Source: an uncultured bacterium (GTDB lineage Bacteria > GCA-001730085). From it: a stretch of DNA of 23,803 bases. Shown piece after piece: positions 3,077 to 23,803 of the stretch. The stretch covers positions 1 through 23,803 of the forward strand of contig CAZMGY010000009.1 in the NCBI GenBank assembly GCA_964565945.1. Direction: 5' to 3'. Position 1 is the stretch's first letter, and each line of letters begins with the position of its first letter. The position numbers and the translations under genes are program-made. Below the pieces are notes generated by a model. The model was not told the DNA's origin. It worked only from the letters and a program-made list of their open reading frames with translations, and ran no database searches.

Positions 3077-3141
3077 ACCATAAGGGTTCCTTCAATTTGG
3101 TCATTCATAGAAAATAAAATTTGAGTAAACGTCTGCTTATT

Positions 3142-3873
3142 ATGACAAAACGTGATAACATCTACAAAAAACAACATAACTCAGTAGCTTTCTTTGAATT
3201 TAATCAAGAAGTTGTCGAAGTATTCGATGATATGATCGAGCGATCGGTGCCTGGTTACCGATCCTTGCTCCATCAGATCGGCCTCTTAGCCAACCAATTC
3301 GCTCAACCCAACAACCATATATATGACTTAGGCTGTTCAACAGGCAATACTCTGGCCTATCTGCTACCAGCCCTTTCCGATATCCACAGTCACATCTTTG
3401 CCATCGATAGCTCAATCGATATGATTAACCAATGCAAGCAGAGGTTTGATCCCTCCAACAACGCGATAAACACTCTCAATTTTCTTCACCAAACCATCGA
3501 AGAAACGCCCATCGAGCAAGCCACGGTTGTTATCCTCAACTTCACTTTACAGTTTATTCCACCACCACAAAGAACCCACGTTCTCTCCCAAATTTATCAA
3601 GGACTGCAACCAGGAGGAATTTTGGTGGTATCCGAAAAAATTTGCTTCGATCATCCTCAAATTCAGGAGCATATGACCAAGCTCCATCATCGTTTCAAAA
3701 GCCAACAAGGCTACAGCAAACTTGAAATCAGTCAAAAACGTGCCGCTCTAGAAAATGTTCTAATTCCCGAAACCCAAGACCAATTGCAAAAAAGACTCTC
3801 CGAGGCAGGATTCACCAATATTGCCCAACACTTTCAACAGATCAATTTTGTCTCTTGGGTAGCCTTTAAATGA
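3142..3873 (+). CDS. cmoA: Carboxy-S-adenosyl-L-methionine synthase CmoA
   Basis: Strongly collinear with the recalled E. coli CmoA: F(D/N)xxVxEVFxDMIxRSVPGY, YDLGC(S)xG, VVLNFTLQF, YQGLxPGG, GYSxLEISQKRxxLENV. The start could be the ATG at 3142 or the TTG at 3121. Confidence 0.9.
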   Translation: MTKRDNIYKKQHNSVAFFEFNQEVVEVFDDMIERSVPGYRSLLHQIGLLANQFAQPNNHIYDLGCSTGNTLAYLLPALSDIHSHIFAIDSSIDMINQCKQRFDPSNNAINTLNFLHQTIEETPIEQATVVILNFTLQFIPPPQRTHVLSQIYQGLQPGGILVVSEKICFDHPQIQEHMTKLHHRFKSQQGYSKLEISQKRAALENVLIPETQDQLQKRLSEAGFTNIAQHFQQINFVSWVAFK

Positions 3874-4844
3874 ACCTACTTGACCCTTTTTTAAACCAAA
3901 TCTCACAAAATCCCTGCCTTGCCGAGATAAGCCAGACACTCCATCAGTTCAAAAACCATCTAATTTTCAACCAACCCCATGGCAACTGGGGCAAATGGAT
4001 CAATATCTTAGAAAAAATGCCCAAAATTACTCCTTCATCGATTAACTTAGATCGCGATGTGATCACCATTGGTGAGCCAAATAACATCTCTCCCGAAGAC
4101 TCTGCACAATTAAAACCATTGGTCGAAAGTATTTTTCCTTGGCGCAAAGGACCCTATCAATTGTTTGACATATACATTGATGCCGAATGGAGATCCGATC
4201 ATAAATGGTCAAGAATTCAAAATCACCTACCCAATCTAAAAAACAAAACCATTCTAGATATCGGTTGCGGAAACGGCTATCACTGTTGGCGCCTCGAGGG
4301 CAGTGGCGTCAAACACGTTCTAGGCATTGATCATACCATGGTTTATTTCTTTCAGTTTCTCATCTTTCAATCCTATATCCAAAGTTCCACGACAGCAATT
4401 TTTCCTTTTTCTCTTGAGGCACTCAAAGGGCTTACCGCATGGAATGATATCATTTTTTCCATGGGAGTCTTGTATCATCAAAAACAACCGATCAACCATT
4501 TGAAACAAATTTATCAGCTACTTAAACCCGAAGGGCATTTGGTACTGGAAACACTTTACATCGAGGATAAAGACGGAGACTTGCTCATTCCTCAAGACCG
4601 CTACGCGCGCATGCGCAACGTTCACAACCTTCCCTCTTGCCCAACCTTAGAACAATGGCTTAAACAAGCTCAATTCAGGAATATTCAACGCATCGACACC
4701 AATAAAACAGATAGCCAAGAACAAAGAAGCACATCCTGGATGACGGGACCCTCCATCAAAGACTTTCTCGACACTCACAACACCAACCTAACCATCGAAG
4801 GCTATCCAGCACCTCGCCGAGTAACCTATCTAGTCCAAAAATGA
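3870..4844 (+). CDS. cmoB: tRNA U34 carboxymethyltransferase CmoB
   Basis: PWRKGPYQLF..IDAEWRSDHKWSRI, ILDIGCGNGYHCWRL, FSMGVLYH, LVLETL, DRYARMRNV and EGYPAPRR are collinear with the recalled E. coli CmoB. There is an ATGA overlap with the cmoA stop. Confidence 0.9.
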   Translation: MNLLDPFLNQISQNPCLAEISQTLHQFKNHLIFNQPHGNWGKWINILEKMPKITPSSINLDRDVITIGEPNNISPEDSAQLKPLVESIFPWRKGPYQLFDIYIDAEWRSDHKWSRIQNHLPNLKNKTILDIGCGNGYHCWRLEGSGVKHVLGIDHTMVYFFQFLIFQSYIQSSTTAIFPFSLEALKGLTAWNDIIFSMGVLYHQKQPINHLKQIYQLLKPEGHLVLETLYIEDKDGDLLIPQDRYARMRNVHNLPSCPTLEQWLKQAQFRNIQRIDTNKTDSQEQRSTSWMTGPSIKDFLDTHNTNLTIEGYPAPRRVTYLVQK

Positions 4845-14488: not shown

Positions 14489-16600
14489 TTAATAATTATG
14501 ATCAAACGCCTTCAACTGGAAGGTTAGCCACAATGCATTCTCAAATCCCGATTCATCGCGTTTCTTGACATAGGTAAAGGCCGATGTCCAGCAGTGCAGA
14601 TCGCGCAAAACGGTGTACTCCTGACGGCTCATATGATTCGTCTCAAAGTTATAATCGTTACGGATAAGAAATCTCCATTTATCCATGGCTTTGAAGCGCA
14701 CCTTTGTCGAAAGTTCATCATTACGATCTCGGAGATAATGATGCCCCAAACTCACGGAATACTCTTTGTCCGTATTGGTGTACACCAAGTCGGCTTCAAT
14801 TTCGTTGTAACGTTTTTCATAAGGATCAAATATTGTTTCAATATCCAAACTTAGCCAATCCCATGGTTGAATTTCAAGCTCTTGATAGATTTCAGACAGA
14901 TCGCGCTTGGCATCACCCCACTCGAGCCCACGAGGATGATAATTGATGTAAAGGCGATGTTGGATCAAGTTCCAATTTTGCGCCCCCGACGGTTTGCGTC
15001 GTCGTGTCTGCAAACGGTTTTCTAAACGAATCTGAAAAAAGTTCTCGTAATTCACATCATCTTTGCTATCAAACTGTTCAATTTTTTCCGACAATAGGGT
15101 GGGTTCACCCTGGTAACGGTACTCAATGCTCGGTTCATGAACAATTCTAAGTCCATTGATATCCAACACTTCGCTGTGATAATCCAGAGATCTATAAAGC
15201 TTTGTATTAAAGGTAACACCACCCAAAACGGCCCCACGAAACTCACTTTCATCGTGTTCTAAATTATGGCTGTAATAAGTTTGGCGTGTCCCGATGTAAG
15301 GCTTAACCCCCACAAAACCCCAACGCCTCGCATACGAAAGCTCTTGTAAAATATCTATCCGATTTGTGCTATTATTGCTCGTCACAGAGTCCTTATTAAT
15401 ATTGGCATACTCCACTTCGGTTTTCCAATACAGTGGCAAGCGAGAAATGTTAATCGGATTGGTGTGATAACGGATCTGCGGCGCATACTCAACAGTATCA
15501 AAAAATTTGTTAGTCTTTTGTTTCAAAAGCACACTGGCTGCCGAACGAGGCATATCATATTGTGTGTACACATACGACTCGGGTTCAGGATTATTCTCGA
15601 ACTCTTTTTCGATATACTCTTGAATCACACTGGCATCACTTAACTTATGCCACTCCACCACCGACCATAGCTCATCTGAAAACTGTTGGCGATGAATCCA
15701 CTTGAATCGGTAACGATCGTCTTCACGCACAGTATGCGACGTTTCATCACGCTCATTGACATAGTAAACCCGTGCCAAACCTTTCACGTCTCGCGTGTTA
15801 TACTTGTGATCTAAACCATAAGCAAAACCTCGTTTATGACGATAGTCGACCAAAGCCTCTCCATGCTGATGATCCCCAATTCCATAGCGATATCCACTCA
15901 AAACATACGTCCCCCAATCAGAATTACAACCAGGAACCAAAAAAAACTTACCACGACGATGTTTCAAAGAGTGGGCATAATACGGCCAATAAAACACTGG
16001 AATTTTGCCAATGTAGACAACAACATTTTTGGCCACAATTTTGTCATTAGGATAAATCAACAACTCTTTGGTCTCAAGGCGCCAATGAGGCTTTGCCAAA
16101 TTACAGGTCGAACATTCGGCCCCATGAATCACAACCGCACCTTCAGGATGACGTTCGAGGGAAGCCCCCCAGGCAAACCATGGCGGCATTTCCATGTGCG
16201 TGTTATCAACATTAGTCTTTTTGGTCACAAAGTCGTAAATAAGGTTATCTCCCATAGTCACCTTATCGCCTTTTTTCAACTTGGCCTGACCATCGGCAAA
16301 GGCTTGCTTTTTGTTCATATCGATCACAATTTTGTCCGCCGTAAGCACCACATCTTTATACTCCACTTTCACATGGCCTTGACCGATAATTTGGTTTGTT
16401 TCACGGGAAAAATCAATTTGATCAGCAGTATATTTAATCGCTTTAACCCAAGAACGATCATCCTCCTGAGCAGATAAAGATGCAATGGCACCCAATAAAA
16501 CAACACAGCAAATAAAAATGCCCCTCAAAGACTTATCTCCTATTAGTTTATAGTATGAAGTGATGTCGCACATCGTATCATAGGTTTTTTGAGAATGCAA
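14489..16600 (-). CDS. lptD: LPS-assembly outer membrane protein LptD (OstA family)
   Basis: A signal-like N-terminus (GIFICCVVLLGAIASLSAQ), then an OstA-N beta-jellyroll pattern (ADQIDFSRETNQIIGQGHVKVEYKDVVLTADKIVIDMNKKQAFADGQAKL), then a long aromatic-rich C-terminal beta-barrel region ending in an aromatic residue (...FDHNY). The start could be the TTG at 16600 or the ATG at 16573. Confidence 0.8.
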   Translation of the reverse strand: MHSQKTYDTMCDITSYYKLIGDKSLRGIFICCVVLLGAIASLSAQEDDRSWVKAIKYTADQIDFSRETNQIIGQGHVKVEYKDVVLTADKIVIDMNKKQAFADGQAKLKKGDKVTMGDNLIYDFVTKKTNVDNTHMEMPPWFAWGASLERHPEGAVVIHGAECSTCNLAKPHWRLETKELLIYPNDKIVAKNVVVYIGKIPVFYWPYYAHSLKHRRGKFFLVPGCNSDWGTYVLSGYRYGIGDHQHGEALVDYRHKRGFAYGLDHKYNTRDVKGLARVYYVNERDETSHTVREDDRYRFKWIHRQQFSDELWSVVEWHKLSDASVIQEYIEKEFENNPEPESYVYTQYDMPRSAASVLLKQKTNKFFDTVEYAPQIRYHTNPINISRLPLYWKTEVEYANINKDSVTSNNSTNRIDILQELSYARRWGFVGVKPYIGTRQTYYSHNLEHDESEFRGAVLGGVTFNTKLYRSLDYHSEVLDINGLRIVHEPSIEYRYQGEPTLLSEKIEQFDSKDDVNYENFFQIRLENRLQTRRRKPSGAQNWNLIQHRLYINYHPRGLEWGDAKRDLSEIYQELEIQPWDWLSLDIETIFDPYEKRYNEIEADLVYTNTDKEYSVSLGHHYLRDRNDELSTKVRFKAMDKWRFLIRNDYNFETNHMSRQEYTVLRDLHCWTSAFTYVKKRDESGFENALWLTFQLKAFDHNY

Positions 16601-16992: not shown

Positions 16993-18945
16993 GTGCTTCG
17001 TCTCGAAAAAAGAACACCACAACTCACAACAGAAGATCAACAAACCTTAGAAACAATGTGGCAAGAGTGCACAAGCGATATTCTACATTGCACGTCTTTA
17101 GCGGCTTGCGGACATCCAGGGGGCTCAATGTCTTCACTCAATCTACTTCTAATGACTTATGCGTTCAGTAATATTTCGCCCGAAAATGTTTTATCGGACA
17201 ATAGAGACCGGGTTATTGTGAGTCATGGTCACATTAGCCCCGCCGTCTATGCCGTTTTGAGCCAATATGGTTTTTTCGATCGCGAAGAGATGATTCTCAA
17301 TTTTCGCAAAACAGGATCTAAGTTTTCTGGTCATATCGAAGATGGCGTCCCAGGAGTGGAATGGAACACAGGGAACCTTGGTCAAGGCATTTCGGCCGCA
17401 TGCGGTCTCGCTTTAGCTCAAAAGAAAAAAAATATCGCTAAATCGGTCTATGTTTTTATGGGAGACGGTGAGCAACAAAAAGGCCAAATTGCCGAAGCCT
17501 GCCGTTTTGCAATCAAGTACAAACTCAACAACCTTGTGGCTATCATTGACGTTAACCGCATGCAAATTGGGGGTGCCACATCCGATATTATGGATCAGGA
17601 TTTAGCAGCTCTTTACAAAGCTCTTCAATGGAATGTGCTTGAAGTGCGGGATGGTCACGACAATCAAACCATCCTCGAAGCCTTGCAACAAGCTCAACAA
17701 CATCACATCGATAACCCTGAAGCCCCCACCGTGATTTTGGCTCACACCATAATGGGCAAAGGTGTTTCTTTCATGAGTGATATCTACGACTTTCACGGCA
17801 AATCCTGCTCGATCGAAGAACACGCTCAGGCAATGGAAGAATTAGGGCTTCCTAACAAACTTAAAGAGTTCCAAGATAAAAAAGCCAAACTAGCTTATAA
17901 ATCTTCGGTGGCAGCCCTAGCTCAAAAACCTACTGTTAATATTAACCTTGGACAGCCCATTGTTTATAATGTGGACGCATTCACCGACAATCGTTCGGCT
18001 TATGGTGCAGCTTTGAATGACCTTGCCAAGCTTAACAACTCCGAGAAAGAAACAACCAAAATCGTTGGGTTTTCTTGCGACCTCGAAGGCTCCGTCAAAA
18101 TGTCGCCCTTTCGCAAAACGTCGCCTGACTACTTCTTCGAAGGAGGTATTCAAGAACATAACACAGCGGTTGTGGCAGGCGCTATGTCAAAAGAAGATTT
18201 TCAAGTGTTCTTTTCAACATTTGGGGTGTTTGGCGTCGATGAAGTTTATAACCAACAACGTCTCAATGGATTTAACCACACCAATATTAAAACCGTATGC
18301 ACGCACTTAGGCTTAAGCGTTGGAGAAGACGGTCCCACGCATCAAAGCATTGACTATGTCGGACTCTTACGTAATGTTTTTGGCTATCAAATTCTTATTT
18401 CAGCCGATCCTAACCAAACAGATCACATGGTCCGTTATGCCGCAAGCATCTATGGAAATGTTTTCATCGGCATGGGGCGGGCCAAAACACCCGTGATTGC
18501 CAACCAAGATAATCAGCCTTATTTCGGCTCAGATTACCAGTTTGAAATTGGCAAAGCCGATTTACTCAAAGAAGGCAATCAAGCAACTCTTATCACCTAT
18601 GGTCCTCTATTGGCCTACACTCTGGAGGCTGCTAAAAAACTAGAAAAAACTCATAACTGTCTGGTAAGTGTACTTAATATGGGATCGCTAGCCCCCTGTG
18701 ACGAAGCAGCTATTATCTCTGCCGCCAAAGACACAGGACATATCATCACTATCGAGGATCATCATGTCGATACAGGTCTCGGCAGCATTGTGGCAAGTGT
18801 ACTCACTCACCATCAGCTGGCCCCTCGCTTTAAAGCACTTGGTATTGATCGATTCAGTTATTCAGGACAACCTTCTGAACTCTACAAAGAACATGGCCTC
18901 GACACAGACAATATTGTCGCAACCGTCCTAGAATTAAGGAAGTAA
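16993..18945 (+). CDS. tkt: Transketolase (single polypeptide; the N-terminal half resembles the short TktN/TktC-type enzymes)
   Basis: GHPGGSMS, RDRVIVSHGHISPAVYA, GNLGQGISAACGLA and the ThDP-binding GDGEQQKGQ..E......L.NL..I.D.N motif. It also has the pyrimidine-binding and C-terminal domains (EGGIQEHN, THLGLSVGEDGPTHQ). The GTG start has AAGGAAGGA about 8 nt upstream. Confidence 0.85.
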   Translation: MLRLEKRTPQLTTEDQQTLETMWQECTSDILHCTSLAACGHPGGSMSSLNLLLMTYAFSNISPENVLSDNRDRVIVSHGHISPAVYAVLSQYGFFDREEMILNFRKTGSKFSGHIEDGVPGVEWNTGNLGQGISAACGLALAQKKKNIAKSVYVFMGDGEQQKGQIAEACRFAIKYKLNNLVAIIDVNRMQIGGATSDIMDQDLAALYKALQWNVLEVRDGHDNQTILEALQQAQQHHIDNPEAPTVILAHTIMGKGVSFMSDIYDFHGKSCSIEEHAQAMEELGLPNKLKEFQDKKAKLAYKSSVAALAQKPTVNINLGQPIVYNVDAFTDNRSAYGAALNDLAKLNNSEKETTKIVGFSCDLEGSVKMSPFRKTSPDYFFEGGIQEHNTAVVAGAMSKEDFQVFFSTFGVFGVDEVYNQQRLNGFNHTNIKTVCTHLGLSVGEDGPTHQSIDYVGLLRNVFGYQILISADPNQTDHMVRYAASIYGNVFIGMGRAKTPVIANQDNQPYFGSDYQFEIGKADLLKEGNQATLITYGPLLAYTLEAAKKLEKTHNCLVSVLNMGSLAPCDEAAIISAAKDTGHIITIEDHHVDTGLGSIVASVLTHHQLAPRFKALGIDRFSYSGQPSELYKEHGLDTDNIVATVLELRK

Positions 18946-20124
18946 ATCTTCAATAGCAGCTTTGAGTTGCGCATCGTCAATTTGGTTCATCGACATTTGA
19001 ATCATATCTCCGTCAGAACGTTTGATCTGTCTTAAATCAATACGAAAAACTTGCTCCATCTCTGGTGTGGATACAGCCAAATCGGGAATAATTCCCTGAC
19101 CTTCCACCAAATCGCCTAAAGGCAAAACATAACGATGGGTCGTAAAACGAACAGCTCCTCCTTGAGGCAAAGGAATAAGGGTCTGAATCGATCCCTTTCC
19201 AAAACTTTTTTGCCCAATCACAGTCGCACGTTGATAATCCTGAAAGGCTCCAGCAACCACCTCAGCCGCACTGGCACTTCCTTCGTTAATCAAAACACAT
19301 AAAGGCAATTGAACTGCAAGTGAATCCGCGCTCACACGATACTTTTTTTCCGAGGAACGATCACGTCCTTTGACGCGAACCACAACTTTATTTTTTTTCA
19401 AAAACAAGGAGACAACTTTAACCGCCTCTGTCAAGAGGCCTCCTGGATTGTTTCTTAAATCCAGAATAAATCCCGAAATATTGCGCGCCATTAAACGCTG
19501 CAACTGATCCCGAACATCCTCAAAAACACCTTCTTTGAAGCGGGTAATTTTCAAATAACCGATATGTCCTTCAATAAGGCATTCATCGCGAACAGGGCGA
19601 GTTTTAATTAATCCACGATAAAGTAAAAAGTCAATTTCGTGTCCATCACGCAAAAACGTAAGCTTAACAGGCGTTCCTGGCAAACCTCGAATCATGCGCA
19701 CAGCTGTATCAATGGGAAACCCCAAAACAGAAACCCCATTCACGCGAATCAAACGGTCTCCAGCTTTAATGCCCGACAACTCCGCAGGAGACCCAAACAA
19801 AGGAGTTACCACCACATGAAATTGATCTCGCGTAACAAGATCAACCCCAACCCCTGCAAACACACCTTTTTGTTCTTTCAAAAGATCTTGATACTCTTGT
19901 TCCGTCATATATTCACTGTAAGGATCAAGAGTCGAAAAAAGTCCTTGCAAGGCCGCCTGAGATAAATCCTCTATCAAAACAGGATCCACGTAGGTTTGAT
20001 CCAGTAAGTGCATAACCCTCTGCACTGTATCGATATTGACTTGATCGTTTGAATTTGCACACAACAAAGGGCTAAACCCTAACCCCCAAAGCCCATAGAT
20101 TATGAACCTAGCAACTTTGTCCAT
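18934..20124 (-). CDS. ctp: S41 family carboxy-terminal processing protease (Ctp/Tsp) with a PDZ domain
   Basis: An N-terminal signal-like segment, a PDZ segment (GSPAELSGIKAGDRLIRVNGVSV), LDLRNNPGGLL, the catalytic Ser context GSASAAEVVAGA and the Lys context GKGSIQT. The start overlaps the upstream radical SAM gene by 25 nt. Confidence 0.88.
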   Translation of the reverse strand: MDKVARFIIYGLWGLGFSPLLCANSNDQVNIDTVQRVMHLLDQTYVDPVLIEDLSQAALQGLFSTLDPYSEYMTEQEYQDLLKEQKGVFAGVGVDLVTRDQFHVVVTPLFGSPAELSGIKAGDRLIRVNGVSVLGFPIDTAVRMIRGLPGTPVKLTFLRDGHEIDFLLYRGLIKTRPVRDECLIEGHIGYLKITRFKEGVFEDVRDQLQRLMARNISGFILDLRNNPGGLLTEAVKVVSLFLKKNKVVVRVKGRDRSSEKKYRVSADSLAVQLPLCVLINEGSASAAEVVAGAFQDYQRATVIGQKSFGKGSIQTLIPLPQGGAVRFTTHRYVLPLGDLVEGQGIIPDLAVSTPEMEQVFRIDLRQIKRSDGDMIQMSMNQIDDAQLKAAIEDLLP

Positions 20125-21143
20125 GTTTCAGGAAACTCCATACTTAAGGAAATCGGTTTCTGATATATTGCGAATCGATCCCGAACTAAGCGATACATTT
20201 GCTCACGTAAGGGTTTATAGTAACGGTATTTCCCATCTCTAGCCACCACAAATTCACTCGTAAATAAATCTGTTTTAGGAAACTTAGTTTGAATATCTTG
20301 ATCCATCCCCTTCATATAACGGAAGGACCCTACAAACAACCGCTGCACACGCGTAACATCCAACTGCTCGGCCACATAATCCACCATTTCGGTGTAACCT
20401 TCTTTCCAACCTGGGTAGTGAATCATCGGATCGACAATAATTCCTATCGAAAACCCGGCCTCTTGGCAGCGCCGTAAAGCCGCAACACGCTCCTCTAGAG
20501 AAGATGTTTTTAACTCGTATTTACGAATCACATCACGAGGGCTCAAAGTCCAGGTTAAATATATATGTTCCAAAGGTTCAATTTGATCCAAAAAATCAAC
20601 GTAACGGCTCTTGCTTCGCAACTCCATAGAAATATACGGACGTGTTTTTAAAAATGAGTACAAATGTTGACTAAATCCAGTAATCGGTTCAAAAAGCAAG
20701 CTATCACTCAGCTCTCCAGTGCTGATAAACAAGTTCTCTTTGTCTCGAGTTAAATCGTCAAGTTCTCGAAACAAATCTTCAATGTTAACCGCAATACGCA
20801 CCAAGGATTCATTTTTCAAATACGAATGCAAATAACAATAGACACATGCAAAATGACACCCTGTTACATGATCTAAGCAATACGCCTCTTCAAAACTCGT
20901 GCAATCTTGGCCAAATGTTTTTTTGCGAATAAAGGCACCCTTATTAACATGCAAATAAACATGCTTGTATTTTTTTTTACTATTTAGAACACGTGCAGCC
21001 TCTCCATCATTCTCAACCACCACATACTCTGGTTGATACACATCTAGACGATTCAACATCTCTTGAGTATAAGCGTAGGGTTCCGCCTCTTTTTGTATCA
21101 ACACCAAAGTAGGCCTAAACTCAGATCCACTCAAAGAAGTCAT
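20100..21143 (-). CDS. Spore photoproduct lyase (SplB)-family radical SAM protein
   Basis: CX3CX2C (C96-H-F-A-C100-V-Y-C103-Y-L) sits at nearly the same distance from the N-terminus as in the recalled B. subtilis SplB (C91/C95/C98). The length is similar (347 aa vs about 340) and the similarity is collinear (LVLIQKEAEPY.. vs LVYIEPRALEY..; GWKEGY vs GWEEGY; GKYRYYK vs GKYIYQK). An AAGGA RBS lies 8 nt upstream of the ATG, inside the preceding gene. Confidence 0.75.
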   Translation of the reverse strand: MTSLSGSEFRPTLVLIQKEAEPYAYTQEMLNRLDVYQPEYVVVENDGEAARVLNSKKKYKHVYLHVNKGAFIRKKTFGQDCTSFEEAYCLDHVTGCHFACVYCYLHSYLKNESLVRIAVNIEDLFRELDDLTRDKENLFISTGELSDSLLFEPITGFSQHLYSFLKTRPYISMELRSKSRYVDFLDQIEPLEHIYLTWTLSPRDVIRKYELKTSSLEERVAALRRCQEAGFSIGIIVDPMIHYPGWKEGYTEMVDYVAEQLDVTRVQRLFVGSFRYMKGMDQDIQTKFPKTDLFTSEFVVARDGKYRYYKPLREQMYRLVRDRFAIYQKPISLSMEFPETWTKLLGS

Positions 21144-22050
21144 TTAACAGATCCTTATGTTCATCAATCCATACTAGCAACTCATCCAATTGATCCACAC
21201 TGTAGGCCTTGAGTTGTAATATCAAATGATCACCTTCCAAATCTTTAGGCAACTGAATCGCAAGATCCTTGGGAGCTTTCAAATTCAGGTAAAGTTGCCT
21301 TATTTTTTCTTCGGCCTCATAACGAATGGGAAAGCGTCGCTTCCACAATTCCTCAAAAATATGCCGATATCGCACCCGTTCATGAAAATTTTGACTCAAA
21401 ATCGAATCAACACCTAACTGTTGCCATAGTTGTTCCAAAGACAGCACTTCTCTTTGGCAAATATGGTCCACGTATTGCATCCAAATTTTTAACTCGTTAT
21501 GATTCATTTTAAGTCCAAGCATCAATCGCACCCACGCATCGCGATGCAGGTTATCGTGCAAATCCACATACAAAAGTTGCTCAACCTTAAGGGTCCTCTT
21601 AAAAACCTCTTCGAAAATCCATTGTTCCGCTTGACTTAAAAAATCGGCGTACTCTTTGTCCTTGTCACCCAAATAAGACGTGGCATACGCATCCCATAAA
21701 TCATCTTTCACATTCCTTAAACTCAGGGATGAACCACATTTTTGACGAAATAAATGTGCCCAATCCCAAAAAGACATCGAAAAAGCATTCAAATGGAGAG
21801 ATTTTTTTAAATCAACAAATTCGTTAACTTTAGACCCAATAGAAACAATATCTATCTGCTTTAGATTTAATTTTTGAGCATTTATCAGCCGTTGTTTTCC
21901 GTCAATTACATAGTACTGATCCAGATCACTCACCACCCAAATGGGCGGTCCCCAAGCCACATTCGGAACAGAACCATCTTGCGGGCAGTGAACTTCTGGT
22001 AAGTAATCCGAAAAAACTTTGTTTATTGAAACTTGTTCAATATATTGCAT
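21121..22050 (-). CDS. Uncharacterised protein with an N-terminal ParB/Srx-fold-like domain (DGKQRL motif) and an unassigned helical C-terminal region of about 230 aa
   Basis: Residues about 30-75 (PPIWVVSDLDQYYVIDGKQRLINAQKLNLKQIDIV) fit the ParB N-terminal/Srx pattern (P-hydrophobic strand, y.v.DG.xR..A...l....i.v). They also resemble the DGQQR/DGQHR signature of DUF262/DndB-type relatives. I recognise nothing in the rest of the protein. It overlaps the SPL-family gene by 23 nt. Confidence 0.5.
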   Translation of the reverse strand: MQYIEQVSINKVFSDYLPEVHCPQDGSVPNVAWGPPIWVVSDLDQYYVIDGKQRLINAQKLNLKQIDIVSIGSKVNEFVDLKKSLHLNAFSMSFWDWAHLFRQKCGSSLSLRNVKDDLWDAYATSYLGDKDKEYADFLSQAEQWIFEEVFKRTLKVEQLLYVDLHDNLHRDAWVRLMLGLKMNHNELKIWMQYVDHICQREVLSLEQLWQQLGVDSILSQNFHERVRYRHIFEELWKRRFPIRYEAEEKIRQLYLNLKAPKDLAIQLPKDLEGDHLILQLKAYSVDQLDELLVWIDEHKDLLNDFFEWI

Positions 22051-22289: not shown

Positions 22290-23803
22290 ATGAAAAAAAC
22301 ACTTTTATGGAATCTTATCATACTACTGTTCGCAACAGACACATGTTGGGGACTTGCGGCTCCTTCTAGCTTCCACTTAAGCCGACCCAAATCATCCTCA
22401 TCAGAGGCATCCGCATTATTTTTTAGTTCCCCTCAATTTTCAGAAATTAGCATTGAAGAGATTGAAAATCTCAAAGAAGGTTTAATCTTCGAAGAAAACA
22501 ATACAGAAGCAGCAAAACCTTACAAACTCATCAAAAAAGATGACAAAGAACTTCCTTCAGAAAAGTTTCGTTTTGGAAAAACAGATGCGGCTCTTTTTCT
22601 CCCCTCAACAAGCATGAAAAATAAGCCTTTTCGCGCAAAGTTAAAAATCTTTGGGTCCAGGTTTCAATATTATGCGGGCTACTTCATCAGCACATTTGTG
22701 TTTGACCTCTTGATTATCTTGGTCCTTATCTTATTCACCACAACTAGTGGAGCCCTCCCCGTCAATGCTCCCATTGCCTTCGCAATCTTGTTCGTCATTC
22801 GCATCTTCTTTCCTGGTTTAGACTCTGCAATCACTGAAAATACAAAAATAAACCTCAAAGGTCGCATTAGCAAGACTATCGAAGAACAAAACAAAAAGTA
22901 TCTTTGTTCTCAATTTGGCTTACAACGAAAATTCTTAGAAGACCTTCTTAAACGCAAAGCCATTGATAAAAATAGCGCCCAAGCCATCAATAGATTTCTC
23001 AAGCACATTGAGAACCATGGAAATAATCATATCCCAACGAACGAAGCCCAAACATTGCAGTTGGTGCTGGATTGGCAACAAAAAAACAACTTGTCGCTCA
23101 ACCAAACCCTTATTTTGCTCAACATTCTAAACCAGCTCTTATTTTCAGGCCGGGACATGCACGAATACTACAAAACCCACTCATCCTATAGCATTAGGAA
23201 GCTTCTCAACAGCCCTACTACAACAAGCAAAGGCCTCTCTATGTTAGAGCGCTATATCCTCATCAACACCTATGCCATAAGTAGTGTTGAAACCAAAAGA
23301 GATCGCGAACAATTTGTAACATTTTTGCTTGAACACCACAGTCTTAAAGCCGATATCAGCAATGTTATGGAACTGTACTATCGTTCTGGTCTTGAAAAAA
23401 TCTTTCAGTACTACATTGTTTCTAGCTACGAAATAGGGCAGTTCAGCTTTTACATACAAGAAGTTTTCGAAGACGATGGTCGTATATCAGCCCTACGGTC
23501 TTTCTTAGACATGCTTTCAAATATTCGTCCTTGGCCACGCGAACTTCGTAAAAGAATCATTCATCATGCCAAAGAAACAACCAAACTACCCCCAGTTTGG
23601 CTAGCTCATCTCTATGCAGAAAATGGAGCCCCAACACAAGAACTTCTTAAAATTTACAAAAGCTGCAAGCATTGGGCCAAAGACCAAAACCACTCCATCT
23701 GGAATACCAAAAAACTCGTTGTCGACGTTATCGCCTCTCATCAACCTATGGGCGAATCTTACAATGCAGAGATATTAGAATATTTATTTGACGAAGTATA
23801 TGA
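22290..23803 (+). CDS. Large orphan membrane/secreted protein, 5' partial (over 504 codons, open to the window end): signal-peptide-like N-terminus plus a bilobed hydrophobic hairpin
   Basis: Not in the supplied track because there is no stop in the window. The frame from the ATG at 22290 stays open to 23803. The N-terminus is MKKTLLWNLIILLFATDTCWGLAAP. Residues 127-176 (YYAGYFISTFVFDLLIILVLILFTTTSGALPVNAPIAFAILFVIRIFFPG) form two hydrophobic lobes separated by a short loop. The remainder is helical-looking with no motif I recognise, and no SD is visible. The tracked minus-strand ORFs 22679-22894 and 23244-23459 are its antisense shadows. Confidence 0.65.
   Translation, partial: MKKTLLWNLIILLFATDTCWGLAAPSSFHLSRPKSSSSEASALFFSSPQFSEISIEEIENLKEGLIFEENNTEAAKPYKLIKKDDKELPSEKFRFGKTDAALFLPSTSMKNKPFRAKLKIFGSRFQYYAGYFISTFVFDLLIILVLILFTTTSGALPVNAPIAFAILFVIRIFFPGLDSAITENTKINLKGRISKTIEEQNKKYLCSQFGLQRKFLEDLLKRKAIDKNSAQAINRFLKHIENHGNNHIPTNEAQTLQLVLDWQQKNNLSLNQTLILLNILNQLLFSGRDMHEYYKTHSSYSIRKLLNSPTTTSKGLSMLERYILINTYAISSVETKRDREQFVTFLLEHHSLKADISNVMELYYRSGLEKIFQYYIVSSYEIGQFSFYIQEVFEDDGRISALRSFLDMLSNIRPWPRELRKRIIHHAKETTKLPPVWLAHLYAENGAPTQELLKIYKSCKHWAKDQNHSIWNTKKLVVDVIASHQPMGESYNAEILEYLFDEVY

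Follow-up and report, generated by a model that had tools for sequence, protein, structure and literature searches.

The window, by which we mean the whole analysed stretch of 23,803 nucleotides, carries on its minus strand a ParB-like gene, an SPL-family radical-SAM gene and a gene for an S41 C-terminal processing peptidase (Table 1). As a reading of the sequence alone had described, ORFs of 309 and 347 aa are present and share 23 nt (21121-21143), and the AAGGA motif taken as the ribosome-binding site of the second gene lies inside the first, 8 nt 5′ of the radical-SAM ATG; the N-terminal peptide quoted for the 309-aa ORF, YYVIDGKQRLINAQKLNLKQIDIV, is likewise found in its translation. The position of the radical-SAM start codon is kept in the alignment of homologues, and an identical 23-nt overlap occurs in the homologous loci L011, L013 and L103. 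Since the radical-SAM gene and the S41 peptidase gene also overlap, by 25 nt, the three genes form one tightly packed unit. The S41 peptidase neighbour is also kept in L011; it is an operon neighbour in the PVC lineage of the window only and stands outside the conserved module. Elsewhere in the window, the earlier assignment of an LptD gene to this replicon finds a candidate whose identity is weakly supported: a 703-aa ORF (14489-16600) reaches 18.8 bits with LptD_N, for which the cut-off is 20.4, and its syntenic homologue in L011 gives weak LptD matches as well.

Table 1. Genes, domains and active-site elements of the locus, in window coordinates.
Feature	Position	Strand	Details
ParB-like gene	21121..22050	(-)	309 aa ORF; belongs, as a divergent member, to a ParB-family clade of ~320 aa
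ParB/Srx N-terminal domain, ~residues 1-105	21736..22050	(-)	Motif G51-K-Q-R54; from family alignment; ParB and sulfiredoxin N-domains superpose
Helical middle domain, ~residues 112-218, assigned as ParB HTH DNA-binding domain	21397..21717	(-)	Profile match to position 206; helices H112-H218 (model)
Family-specific C-terminal alpha/beta domain, ~residues 224-309	21124..21381	(-)	Conserved R239, P241, E272
Gene junction	21121..21156	(-)	AAGGA 21156-21152; radical-SAM ATG 21143-21141; ParB-like stop 21123-21121
SPL-family radical-SAM gene	20100..21143	(-)	347 aa ORF
Cys81 codon, candidate Clostridium-type fourth Cys (H-atom donor)	20901..20903	(-)	Corresponds to Gt SPL residue 76 (profile alignment)
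CxxxCxxC [4Fe-4S]/SAM motif C96, C100, C103	20835..20858	(-)	Alignment to Gt SPL
Predicted beta-hairpin, residues 298-309	20217..20252	(-)	Motif D303-G-K-x-R-Y308; at the place of the SPL lesion-flipping hairpin (model)
S41 C-terminal processing peptidase gene	18934..20124	(-)	Peptidase_S41 E=1e-51; TIGR00225 296 bits

Fold and Nucleotide Pocket of the ParB-Like Protein

Searched directly, the 309-aa protein has zero NCBIfam matches and no significant match in Pfam, where GmrSD_N (E=0.21) is the sole entry returned. A full HMMER scan gave 52 relatives; 34 relatives were aligned, and residues were counted over 85 full-length members. PF02195 (ParB_N) is matched by 26 of the 34 aligned relatives, and the family profile finds M. 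xanthus ParB in the PDB (7bnk, E=7e-30) over positions 7-206, which comprise NTD and HTH, as well as Noc, Srx, SerK and SbnI. Foldseek searches with an AF2 model of the protein (pLDDT 90.6) return Noc, ParB and KorB as top matches, and Srx too, with a probability of 1.00; the alignments to the NTD+DBD structures of Noc, ParB and KorB span 205-225 columns, and the weaker sequence and structure matches include sulfiredoxin, free serine kinase and SbnI. Judged by profile and model, the 309-aa protein is of the ParB/Noc/KorB type, with a predicted ParB/Srx NTD, an HTH and a family-specific C-terminal domain. The ParB/Srx-like character proposed by the sequence-only reading is thereby borne out, by family profile and fold search rather than by a direct Pfam scan. 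The C-terminal domain lacks any match in Pfam, NCBIfam, PDB or BFVD and is modelled as H224-257, E263-266, E277-280 and H285-308. The most conserved residues of the family sit in this non-HTH domain: P241 and E272 are invariant (85/85 full-length members), and R239 is found in 80/85.

With chromosomal ParB/Spo0J, Noc and KorB, which are CTP-switch DNA clamps, the family shares the NTD+HTH architecture, the HTH following the N-domain as is canonical for ParB, and retains overall G-x-(R/K)-R, mostly (D/E)-N, and E-K where ParB has its boxes II and III. It differs from them in its C-terminal domain, in the absence of a ParA-like gene beside the pair, both in the window and at 86 related loci, in scores of typical members against the curated ParB partition model TIGR00180 (40-49 bits) that lie below the cut-off of 58.45, and in lacking the Gln-Pro-Arg segment, which holds Gln52 in M. 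xanthus ParB. The family does not possess the complete ParB CTP pocket, consisting of Gln-Pro-Arg, a GERR box II and an ENLQR box III. While G51 is kept in 83/85 members and R54 in 82/85, position 53 is R/K in 73/85 and position 87 D/E in 55/85; the window protein instead reads G-K-Q-R, L-N and D-W at the box II/III positions (Q53, L87, W97). The residues of the NTP pocket are degenerate in the clade of the window, where the NTP-binding role that had been ascribed to this subunit is doubtful.

The DGKQRL motif had moreover been compared with the DGQQR motif of DUF262/DndB-type proteins. DUF262/GmrSD_N, DndB and DpdB are relatives within one superfamily, and their DGQQR looks superficially like DGKQR, but the family consensus is the ParB-type G-x-(R/K)-R, and defence or modification neighbours are absent here. 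As an identity for the window protein, DUF262/GmrSD_N was rejected: PF03235 gives 12.1 bits where 33.2 are required, and none of the 34 relatives matches it at E<=0.01.

Fold and Active Site of the Radical-SAM Enzyme

The radical-SAM protein matches the Pfam SPL model PF20903 with 111.4 bits (cut-off 27) from residue 9 to 308, corresponding to model positions 1-304 of 338; it matches PF04055 with 37 bits and Gt SPL chains with an E-value of about 1e-22. Its AF2 model (pLDDT 86, pTM 0.87) superposes on SPL (4k9r/4fhc) with a TM of 0.80 and E 2e-22 over about 350 columns, whereas the next radical-SAM fold reaches 0.48 only. The collinearity of the ORF with SplB noted in the sequence-only reading thus extends to PF20903 and to a full-length superposition. 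The protein nevertheless falls short of both curated models: with TIGR04070, the SPL equivalog, whose cut-off is 400 bits, it scores 120.2 (105-147 bits for relatives), and with TIGR03886, which represents an SPL-family clade of non-spore-formers, 46.9 bits against 437.55. By sequence and model, the 347-aa enzyme is a full-length structural match to SPL that lies outside the curated SPL equivalog.

Active-site residues were counted over 87 relatives, 52 of them ParB-paired. Present in all 87 are C96, C100 and C103 of the cluster motif together with Y102 (SPL Tyr96), K178 (SPL Lys174, which binds SAM) and R275 (SPL Arg273, which together with Lys309 contacts the lesion phosphate); position 199 (SPL Ser195) is invariably Ser or Thr, with Thr in the window enzyme. 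The predicted hairpin, modelled with strands E298-300 and E305-308, is equally conserved: D303, K305, R307 and Y308 occur in 87/87 relatives and G304 in 86/87. R275 and this hairpin correspond to the phosphate Arg and the basic/aromatic β-hairpin by which SPL binds its lesion, the hairpin having a role in lesion flipping (PMC3467042). In SPL a fourth Cys, Cys140/141 in Bacillus, serves as the H-atom donor, and a Cys at the Clostridium-type position has this role as well (PMC3467042). The best PDB match of the enzyme family profile is the C140A/S76C mutant 4rh0, whose engineered Cys76 aligns with the conserved Cys of the family, and Cys is found at position 81 in 70/87 relatives and in 50 of the 52 that are ParB-paired. 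Compared by way of this mimic with the Clostridium-type SPL (Cys77), the window enzyme has in common a Cys, C81, that aligns with donor position 76 and a non-Cys residue at position 140 (PMC3467042); it differs in that this residue is Glu, not Ala, and in the absence of a spore context.

Relative to SplB of Geobacillus/Bacillus (4FHC/4FHD), the full-length fold, CxxxCxxC, the β-hairpin and the counterparts of Tyr96, Lys174, Ser195 and Arg273 are common features. On the other hand, identity to SPL is only ~24%, a near-invariant Glu (84/87 relatives) stands in place of Cys140, and the counterpart of Tyr98, which belongs to the radical relay, is not family-wide: Y104 is Tyr in the window and in 17/87 relatives, Ile or Phe being usual. 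Because of the Glu and the unconserved Tyr98 counterpart, the reaction may differ from SP repair. Placement in a clade that does not act on DNA, named beforehand as an outcome that would speak against the sequence-only reading, is disfavoured: the SPL phosphate Arg, SAM Lys, β-hairpin and a candidate donor-position Cys are all kept, which favours action on DNA.

Conservation and Genomic Context of the Gene Pair

A scan with the enzyme alignment returned 563 stretches containing a relative, the best 80 of which were kept as loci, 78 of them informative. Of these 78 (best 80 of 563), 51 have the ParB-like gene immediately 5′ of the enzyme gene and in the same orientation, and 4 further loci have it within about 2.3 kb; 42 of the 51 adjacent pairs either overlap (23) or are separated by gaps of <=30 nt (19). 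When 8 relatives of the ParB-like protein were sampled in turn, the enzyme gene proved to be a direct neighbour or a member of the same operon in 6. Preferential adjacency to SPL-family genes, on which the sequence-only reading depended, therefore holds in both directions. The partnership is not obligatory, since 23 of the 78 enzyme relatives (from anammox, Sumerlaeota, Fibrobacterota and a short-form clade) have no ParB-like gene in the flanks examined and 2 of the 8 ParB-like relatives no enzyme within 3 kb. Adjacent pairs are found in Thermodesulfobacteriota, Acidobacteriota, Aminicenantes, Eubacteriales-labelled MAGs, Elusimicrobia, Planctomycetes, KSB1 and the PVC clade, and the paired state is scattered over the entire enzyme tree, which tracks taxonomy and not the spread of mobile elements. 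The surroundings of the pair are chromosomal and of housekeeping character, they vary by lineage, and across 86 loci they contain no third conserved gene. The association of the ParB-like gene with the SPL-family gene is not accidental. In the literature searched we found no description of it, in agreement with the earlier statement that none was known.

Interpretation of the Gene Pair

Unrelated genes may overlap in a compact genome, and the overlap between the S41 peptidase gene and the radical-SAM gene means that overlaps alone prove no functional linkage here; as an explanation of the pair, chance is effectively refuted by the neighbourhood analysis, in which adjacency persists across phyla (51/78 informative loci, best 80 of 563) while the remaining surroundings change. 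The ParB-like protein might also be a mere transcriptional (auto)regulator of the operon, in the manner of KorB or of SplA for splB, with no physical partnership. SplA, a small regulator of ~79 aa unrelated to ParB, is encoded immediately upstream of splB in one operon in Bacillus; the ParB-like gene occupies the same position relative to its SPL-family gene and, like SplA in B. subtilis, heads the operon, although the locus encodes no SplA-like protein. A regulatory role would further fit the ParB/KorB-type HTH, the repressor KorB among the structural matches, and the much faster divergence of the ParB-like protein, which is 38% identical to its Bugula PVC homologue as against 70% for the enzyme. 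We nonetheless hold such a role to be unlikely: upstream of the ParB-like gene, the window and three related loci show neither a conserved palindrome nor an inverted repeat resembling an operator, conservation is highest in the non-HTH C-terminal domain, the KSB1 pair stays in one operon despite the esterase genes inserted between its members, and the stop/start overlaps are kept across phyla, which indicates stoichiometric co-production.

Two further explanations concern the substrate. The pair could add or remove a DNA base modification for epigenetic or defence purposes, the ParB-like protein making DNA accessible in the manner of phage hypermodification pathways. In favour stand the repeated occurrence of ParB/Srx proteins in systems that modify DNA, a known thymine dioxygenase that depends on ParB (PMC13229309), and the near-invariant Glu at the Cys140 position, which is compatible with other chemistry on a thymine-like base. 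What makes this distinctly improbable is the context: neither window protein matches a PADLOC defence model, genes for methyltransferases, nucleases, glycosylases or other functions in modification or restriction are not conserved nearby in 86 loci, the housekeeping surroundings differ by lineage, and the enzyme tree follows taxonomy. One typical member of the ParB-like family shows a weak N-terminal match (E=3e-6) to a PADLOC model for a type II methyltransferase; this match corresponds to the shared ParB-like N-domain. We see a slim chance that the enzyme acts on something other than DNA, be it a small molecule, a protein or RNA, with a ParB/Srx domain that would serve as a kinase or phosphotransferase using ATP, as in sulfiredoxin, SerK or SbnI: radical-SAM families often switch substrate, and sulfiredoxin, free serine kinase and SbnI are among the weaker matches, but the best ones are the DNA-binding proteins ParB, Noc and KorB, HTH included, the SPL phosphate-binding Arg and the hairpin motif at the lesion-flipping position are retained, and the same 86 loci hold no conserved metabolic gene.

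The reading that we prefer, with a probability of about 0.5, is that of a dedicated two-protein DNA-directed module composed of a ParB-like adaptor or activator and an SPL-type lyase. Its best functional analogy would be the ParB-dependent phage thymine dioxygenases: the phage ParB homologue ParB176 is encoded with the DNA enzyme 5mYOX176, its cognate thymine dioxygenase, which requires it on dsDNA, while substitutions at the conserved residues for NTP binding or hydrolysis leave this role intact (PMC13229309). 5mYOX176 is a phage-encoded Fe(II)/2-oxoglutarate dioxygenase and ParB176 has no obvious DNA-binding domain (PMC13229309), whereas the enzyme here is a chromosomal radical-SAM protein and its partner retains the HTH. 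In such a module, translational coupling would keep the ParB-like protein and the enzyme at a fixed ratio, and the ParB-like protein would bind DNA and recruit or activate the enzyme on dsDNA, probably through its conserved C-terminal domain. The enzyme would use its [4Fe-4S] cluster and SAM to form the 5′-deoxyadenosyl radical; by analogy with SPL, its β-hairpin would flip from the duplex a dinucleotide that is damaged or modified, a C-C bond would be broken, and the Cys at the Clostridium-type donor position would give an H atom back. Because the NTP-pocket residues are degenerate, the ParB-like partner in the clade of the window probably acts without a CTP switch. From gene order only, we infer a physical interaction of the two proteins; we also infer that DNA is the substrate, that the chemistry is repair and not modification, and whatever role nucleotides have. 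In the sequence-only reading the ParB-like protein targets or loads the DNA lyase, a mechanism that may apply here.

As the pair recurs, tightly coupled, in more than 10 phyla and no description of it was found, it probably marks an unstudied system of DNA repair or DNA processing. Its hosts are non-spore-formers, mostly from free-living lineages of sediment and groundwater, and the condensed-nucleoid or dormant stage to which the sequence-only reading had tentatively tied the pair has no support. UV-generated SP is an unlikely lesion in the dark, anoxic habitats of most hosts. A precedent for the preferred reading is that SplB-type radical-SAM genes of COG1533 are SOS-regulated in non-spore-formers (PMC8565304).

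The Gene Pair Lies in a Compact Minus-Strand Unit

Reading the junction between the two genes from the sequence confirmed what the sequence-only reading had reported: the ORFs of 309 and 347 aa overlap by 23 nt, an AAGGA motif embedded in the ParB-like gene precedes the radical-SAM start codon, and the peptide quoted from the 309-aa ORF is found in its translation. The spacer between AAGGA and the start codon measures 8 nt. The radical-SAM gene in turn overlaps the S41 peptidase gene by 25 nt, and because of these two overlaps the three genes constitute a single compact minus-strand unit (see table of features). Promoter and terminator scans of the window performed no better than on shuffled sequence (equal counts), and searching it for Rfam families and tRNAs yielded zero matches.

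Features of the window and their positions
Feature	Position	Strand	Remarks
ParB-like gene	21121..22050	-	ORF, 309 aa
Radical-SAM gene	20100..21143	-	ORF, 347 aa
S41 C-terminal processing peptidase gene	18934..20124	-	signal peptide; directly downstream of radical-SAM gene
AAGGA motif	21156-21152		
Radical-SAM ATG	21143-21141		
ParB-like TGA	21123-21121		
Candidate LptD-like ORF	14489-16600	-	sub-threshold matches: LptD_N, 18.8 bits; OstA_2, E=0.015
Decayed pseudogene remnants	22773-23738	+	
CmoA-like methyltransferase gene, then CmoB-type gene	3121-4844	+	4-nt overlap; CmoB-type: PF08003, E=1e-103

The 309-aa Protein Belongs to a Divergent ParB-Like Family

Compared directly with Pfam and NCBIfam, the 309-aa protein gave no significant match (sole hit: GmrSD_N, E=0.21), and a word-indexed homology search with it returned only the protein itself and, when rerun with the family alignment, few proteins. 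When 1.8 billion representatives were scanned in full with HMMER, 52 relatives, mostly of ~320 aa, were retrieved. PF02195 (ParB_N) is matched by 26 of the 34 relatives that were aligned, and the family profile matches Myxococcus xanthus ParB (7bnk) with E=7e-30 over profile positions 7-206, which correspond to the N-terminal and HTH domains; further matches are Spo0J, Noc, KorB, PadC, sulfiredoxin, and a serine kinase. For the alignment-based AlphaFold model (pLDDT 90.6, pTM 0.80), the top PDB matches are NTD+DBD structures of Noc, ParB, and KorB, and the top viral matches are ParB/Spo0J HTH proteins. Family profile and structure search thus bear out the ParB/sulfiredoxin fold that had been proposed for this protein.

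The accompanying proposal of a DGQQR/DUF262-type motif did not hold: At the ParB box II position the family consensus reads G-x-(R/K)-R, with (D/E)-N and E-K motifs after it, and the motif is therefore of the ParB type. Kinship with DUF262/DGQQR proteins was also ruled out by Pfam scans of the 309-aa protein and its relatives. In the window protein and its PVC-clade relatives these box positions are degenerate (Q53, L87, W97), the Gln-Pro-Arg segment that holds Gln52 in M. xanthus ParB is missing family-wide, and typical family members score below the cut-off of the curated ParB model TIGR00180. The C-terminal ~85 residues are predicted to form a small α/β domain, which found no match in any search made; within it lie the most conserved residues of the family, namely P241 and E272 (each 85/85 full-length members) and R239 (80/85).

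The Enzyme Retains Several Features of Spore Photoproduct Lyase

The radical-SAM protein passes the Pfam model of spore photoproduct lyase (SPL) with 111 bits and stays below both the SPL equivalog TIGR04070 (120 vs 400 bits) and TIGR03886 (47 vs 438 bits). Its predicted structure (pLDDT 86, pTM 0.87) superposes on G. thermodenitrificans SPL with a TM score of 0.80 over ~350 columns, the next radical-SAM fold reaching 0.48, so that the collinearity with SPL noted earlier is upheld by both the Pfam score and the fold. Residues were mapped by alignment to SPL crystal-structure chains (offset +27) and with the help of the structural paper (PMC3467042), and their conservation was counted over 87 enzyme relatives.

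Conservation of SPL residues among 87 enzyme relatives
Window residue	SPL equivalent	Conservation
C96, C100, C103	cluster cysteines	87/87
Y102	Tyr96	87/87
Y104	Tyr98	Tyr in only 17/87
K178	Lys174	87/87
T199	Ser195	Ser or Thr in 87/87
R275	Arg273	87/87
E144	Cys140 (Bacillus-type donor)	Glu in 84/87
C81	residue 76 (Clostridium-type donor)	Cys in 70/87; ParB-paired 50/52

A β-hairpin predicted at residues 298-308 occupies the same position as the lesion-flipping hairpin of SPL and carries a D-G-K-x-R-Y motif, whose sole variation among the 87 relatives is one Ser in place of Gly. The top PDB match of the family profile is the SPL mutant C140A/S76C (4rh0), and C81, located at the Clostridium-type donor position, aligns with its engineered Cys76. 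Judged by alignment and model, the enzyme retains the SAM site of SPL, a phosphate-binding Arg, and a hairpin, together with a plausible H-atom donor; the conserved active-site Glu and the variability at the Tyr98 position would be compatible with a reaction other than that of SPL. Many of the enzymes without an adjacent ParB-like gene have Phe in place of Cys81 (11 of 26 unpaired), and many have a Cys two residues past the SPL-Cys140 position (9 of 26 unpaired), as noted for the anammox Planctomycetes loci L023, L024, L028, L031, L034, L043, L048, and L050.

The Pairing Is Conserved across Phyla

The close PVC-clade homologues (loci L011, L013, L014, L103) all have a ParB-like gene of ~300 aa that overlaps the start of the enzyme gene, and in delta-proteobacterial MAGs, whose enzyme is 31% identical, a PF02195-positive gene of 325-331 aa does so by 11 nt. 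When the GTDB species, each represented by a single genome, were scanned with the enzyme alignment, at least 563 stretches that encode a relative were identified, the best 80 of which were kept as loci and searched with HMMs of both families. Their hosts include Thermodesulfobacteriota and other 'Deltaproteobacteria', Acidobacteriota, Aminicenantes, anammox Planctomycetes, Eubacteriales/Clostridia-labelled MAGs, Elusimicrobia, Fibrobacterota, Sumerlaeota, Nitrospirae, and Auribacterota. In 51 of these best 80 loci the ParB-like gene lies directly upstream on the same strand, in 4 it lies within ~2.3 kb, in 23 it is absent from the fetched flanks, and 2 are uninformative owing to a contig edge. 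Among the 51 loci with an adjacent pair, the two genes overlap in 23, typically by 1, 4, 8 or 11 nt, and are separated by at most 30 nt in another 19. In a neighbour-joining tree of the enzyme, the paired state is found throughout; the unpaired state clusters in a small number of groups, namely anammox, Sumerlaeota, Fibrobacterota, and one clade of short forms. In the unpaired anammox loci the upstream gene is often hydantoinase-B-like, and in L035 and L045 the ParB-like gene is located one gene further upstream.

Viewed from the ParB-like side, for which only eight representatives were looked up, the enzyme is adjacent in four, shares the operon in two from the KSB1 lineage, and is missing within 3 kb in two. 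In the KSB1 loci (L101:4016-5488, L102:4239-4709) one or two genes of the esterase family are inserted, and the ParB-like and SPL-family genes are still on the same strand. With 51 of the best 80 loci adjacent and, among the eight ParB-like representatives, the enzyme adjacent or in the same operon in six, the two families are preferentially neighbours, and a merely accidental adjacency is effectively excluded.

Neighbour clustering yielded no third conserved gene, for example for an electron donor, a helicase, or a nuclease, the largest extra cluster comprising 10/86 loci. In some delta-proteobacterial MAGs (L015:7099-8849, L017:7116-8871) a multi-[4Fe-4S] ferredoxin-domain (Fer4) protein and an FMN reductase are encoded after the pair and could serve as electron donors for the radical-SAM enzyme; they are not general partners. 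An XPB/ERCC3-type helicase and a Helicase_C_3 protein directly upstream of the pair's ParB-like gene (P0033) on the same strand in L106:1-2837 hint, at this one locus, at a DNA-repair neighbourhood. The genomic contexts of the pair are ordinary chromosomal ones; neither window protein matches a PADLOC defence model, and membership of a defence system was ruled out on these zero matches.

Proposed Mechanism and Alternatives

To our knowledge, no radical-SAM DNA repair enzyme other than SPL has a defined reaction, and SPL is seen as a speciality of spores; the roles known for ParB proteins are mainly those of CTP-gated clamps that act in chromosome segregation, nucleoid occlusion, and the control of plasmid genes. 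The conserved, translationally coupled pair, found in many species of more than 10 phyla, suggests that SPL-type chemistry is used far beyond spores and that a DNA enzyme has come to use the ParB scaffold as its accessory factor; a phage study of 2026 has just opened this theme. The sequence-only reading knew of no description of the pairing, and our searches likewise yielded no account of ParB linked in this way with a photoproduct lyase or radical-SAM protein in the searchable literature, outside which most subscription journals lie. None of the curated NCBIfam models names either protein, so that current annotation pipelines would probably assign them generic names only. The components come from known superfamilies and the system is therefore not categorically new, yet specialists in both fields would be surprised by the combination and its breadth across phyla.

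Our results support a self-contained module of two genes, inherited vertically and translated together. As the most economical mechanism, the ParB-like protein would bind DNA via its HTH and possibly also its N-domain, and would use its highly conserved C-terminal domain to recruit or activate the SPL-type enzyme; we infer that the two proteins interact physically, that DNA is the substrate, and that the outcome is repair and not modification. A direct precedent is provided by a subclass of phage thymine dioxygenases, in which the cognate ParB homologue is required specifically for activity on dsDNA, a requirement unaffected by mutating its NTP-binding or hydrolysis residues (PMC13229309). Moreover, COG1533 SplB-type radical-SAM genes are reported to be SOS-regulated in several non-spore-forming groups (PMC8565304), which fits an involvement in DNA damage. 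For sediment and groundwater anaerobes, spore photoproduct generated by UV is improbable as a natural lesion, and the distribution of the pair lends no support to the condensed-nucleoid or dormant stage that had been considered; speculatively, methylene-bridged or dihydropyrimidine lesions from anoxic radical stress may be the substrate instead. We give a probability of roughly 0.3 to the reading that the pair is an ancient, widespread system by which bacteria that form no spores and are mostly anaerobic repair their DNA, and in which a ParB-family clamp or adaptor scans or opens the duplex and delivers an SPL-type lyase that directly reverses such lesions, formed without light or oxygen. If true, this would be the first ParB-family protein that is dedicated to DNA repair, and direct reversal of the SPL type would be seen for the first time outside spores.

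An HTH protein encoded by the first gene of an operon could also be a pure autoregulator of that operon. No operator-like inverted repeat is conserved upstream of the ParB-like gene in the window and three related loci, however, and both the conserved translational coupling and the non-HTH nature of the conserved C-terminal domain speak against this role, which we consider rather unlikely. A function in DNA modification or defence is made less likely by the housekeeping context and the zero defence-model matches and appears improbable, and an enzyme acting on something other than DNA, a reading opposed by the HTH domain of the partner and the retained DNA-handling features of SPL, is similarly improbable. 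The pair offers a concrete handle on which DNA lesion or modification anaerobes process by radical chemistry, and it allows ParB-family partners to be tested as general "dsDNA access" factors.

Genomic Surroundings of the Pair

The nearest relatives of both proteins are encoded by 'PVC group bacterium (ex Bugula neritina AB1)', which represents a deep-branching lineage of the PVC group and carries peptidoglycan genes (PMC5041132). Synteny between the window and this bacterium comprises the pair, the S41 gene, the transketolase gene, and the LptD-like gene. The S41 peptidase is an unexpected operon companion of a presumed DNA enzyme; its overlapping arrangement is kept there and probably reflects lineage-specific packing. 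As for the LptD claimed in the sequence-only reading, the LptD_N score points weakly in that direction and falls short of the cut-off of 20.4 bits; the ORF would encode a very divergent LptD-like protein, if one at all.

The decayed remnants upstream of the ParB-like gene consist of two tblastn pieces (32-36% identity, E 1e-11 to 1e-14) of a 1279-aa protein, whose gene in the Bugula PVC bacterium immediately precedes the ParB-like gene on its upstream side (compare L011:609-4448). They are inverted, an internal segment of ~186 aa has collapsed to 49 nt, and the region has no plus-strand ORF as long as 60 aa and a GC content down to 0.36. In about 23 other assemblies of the same organism (L001-L010), all contigs with the exact gene stop ~300 nt upstream of the ParB-like start, which suggests that a repeat or low-coverage AT-rich region past window position ~22350 breaks assemblies. 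Finally, the CmoA-like and CmoB-type genes apparently represent an intact gene pair of the tRNA uridine-5-oxyacetic acid pathway in this PVC genome.
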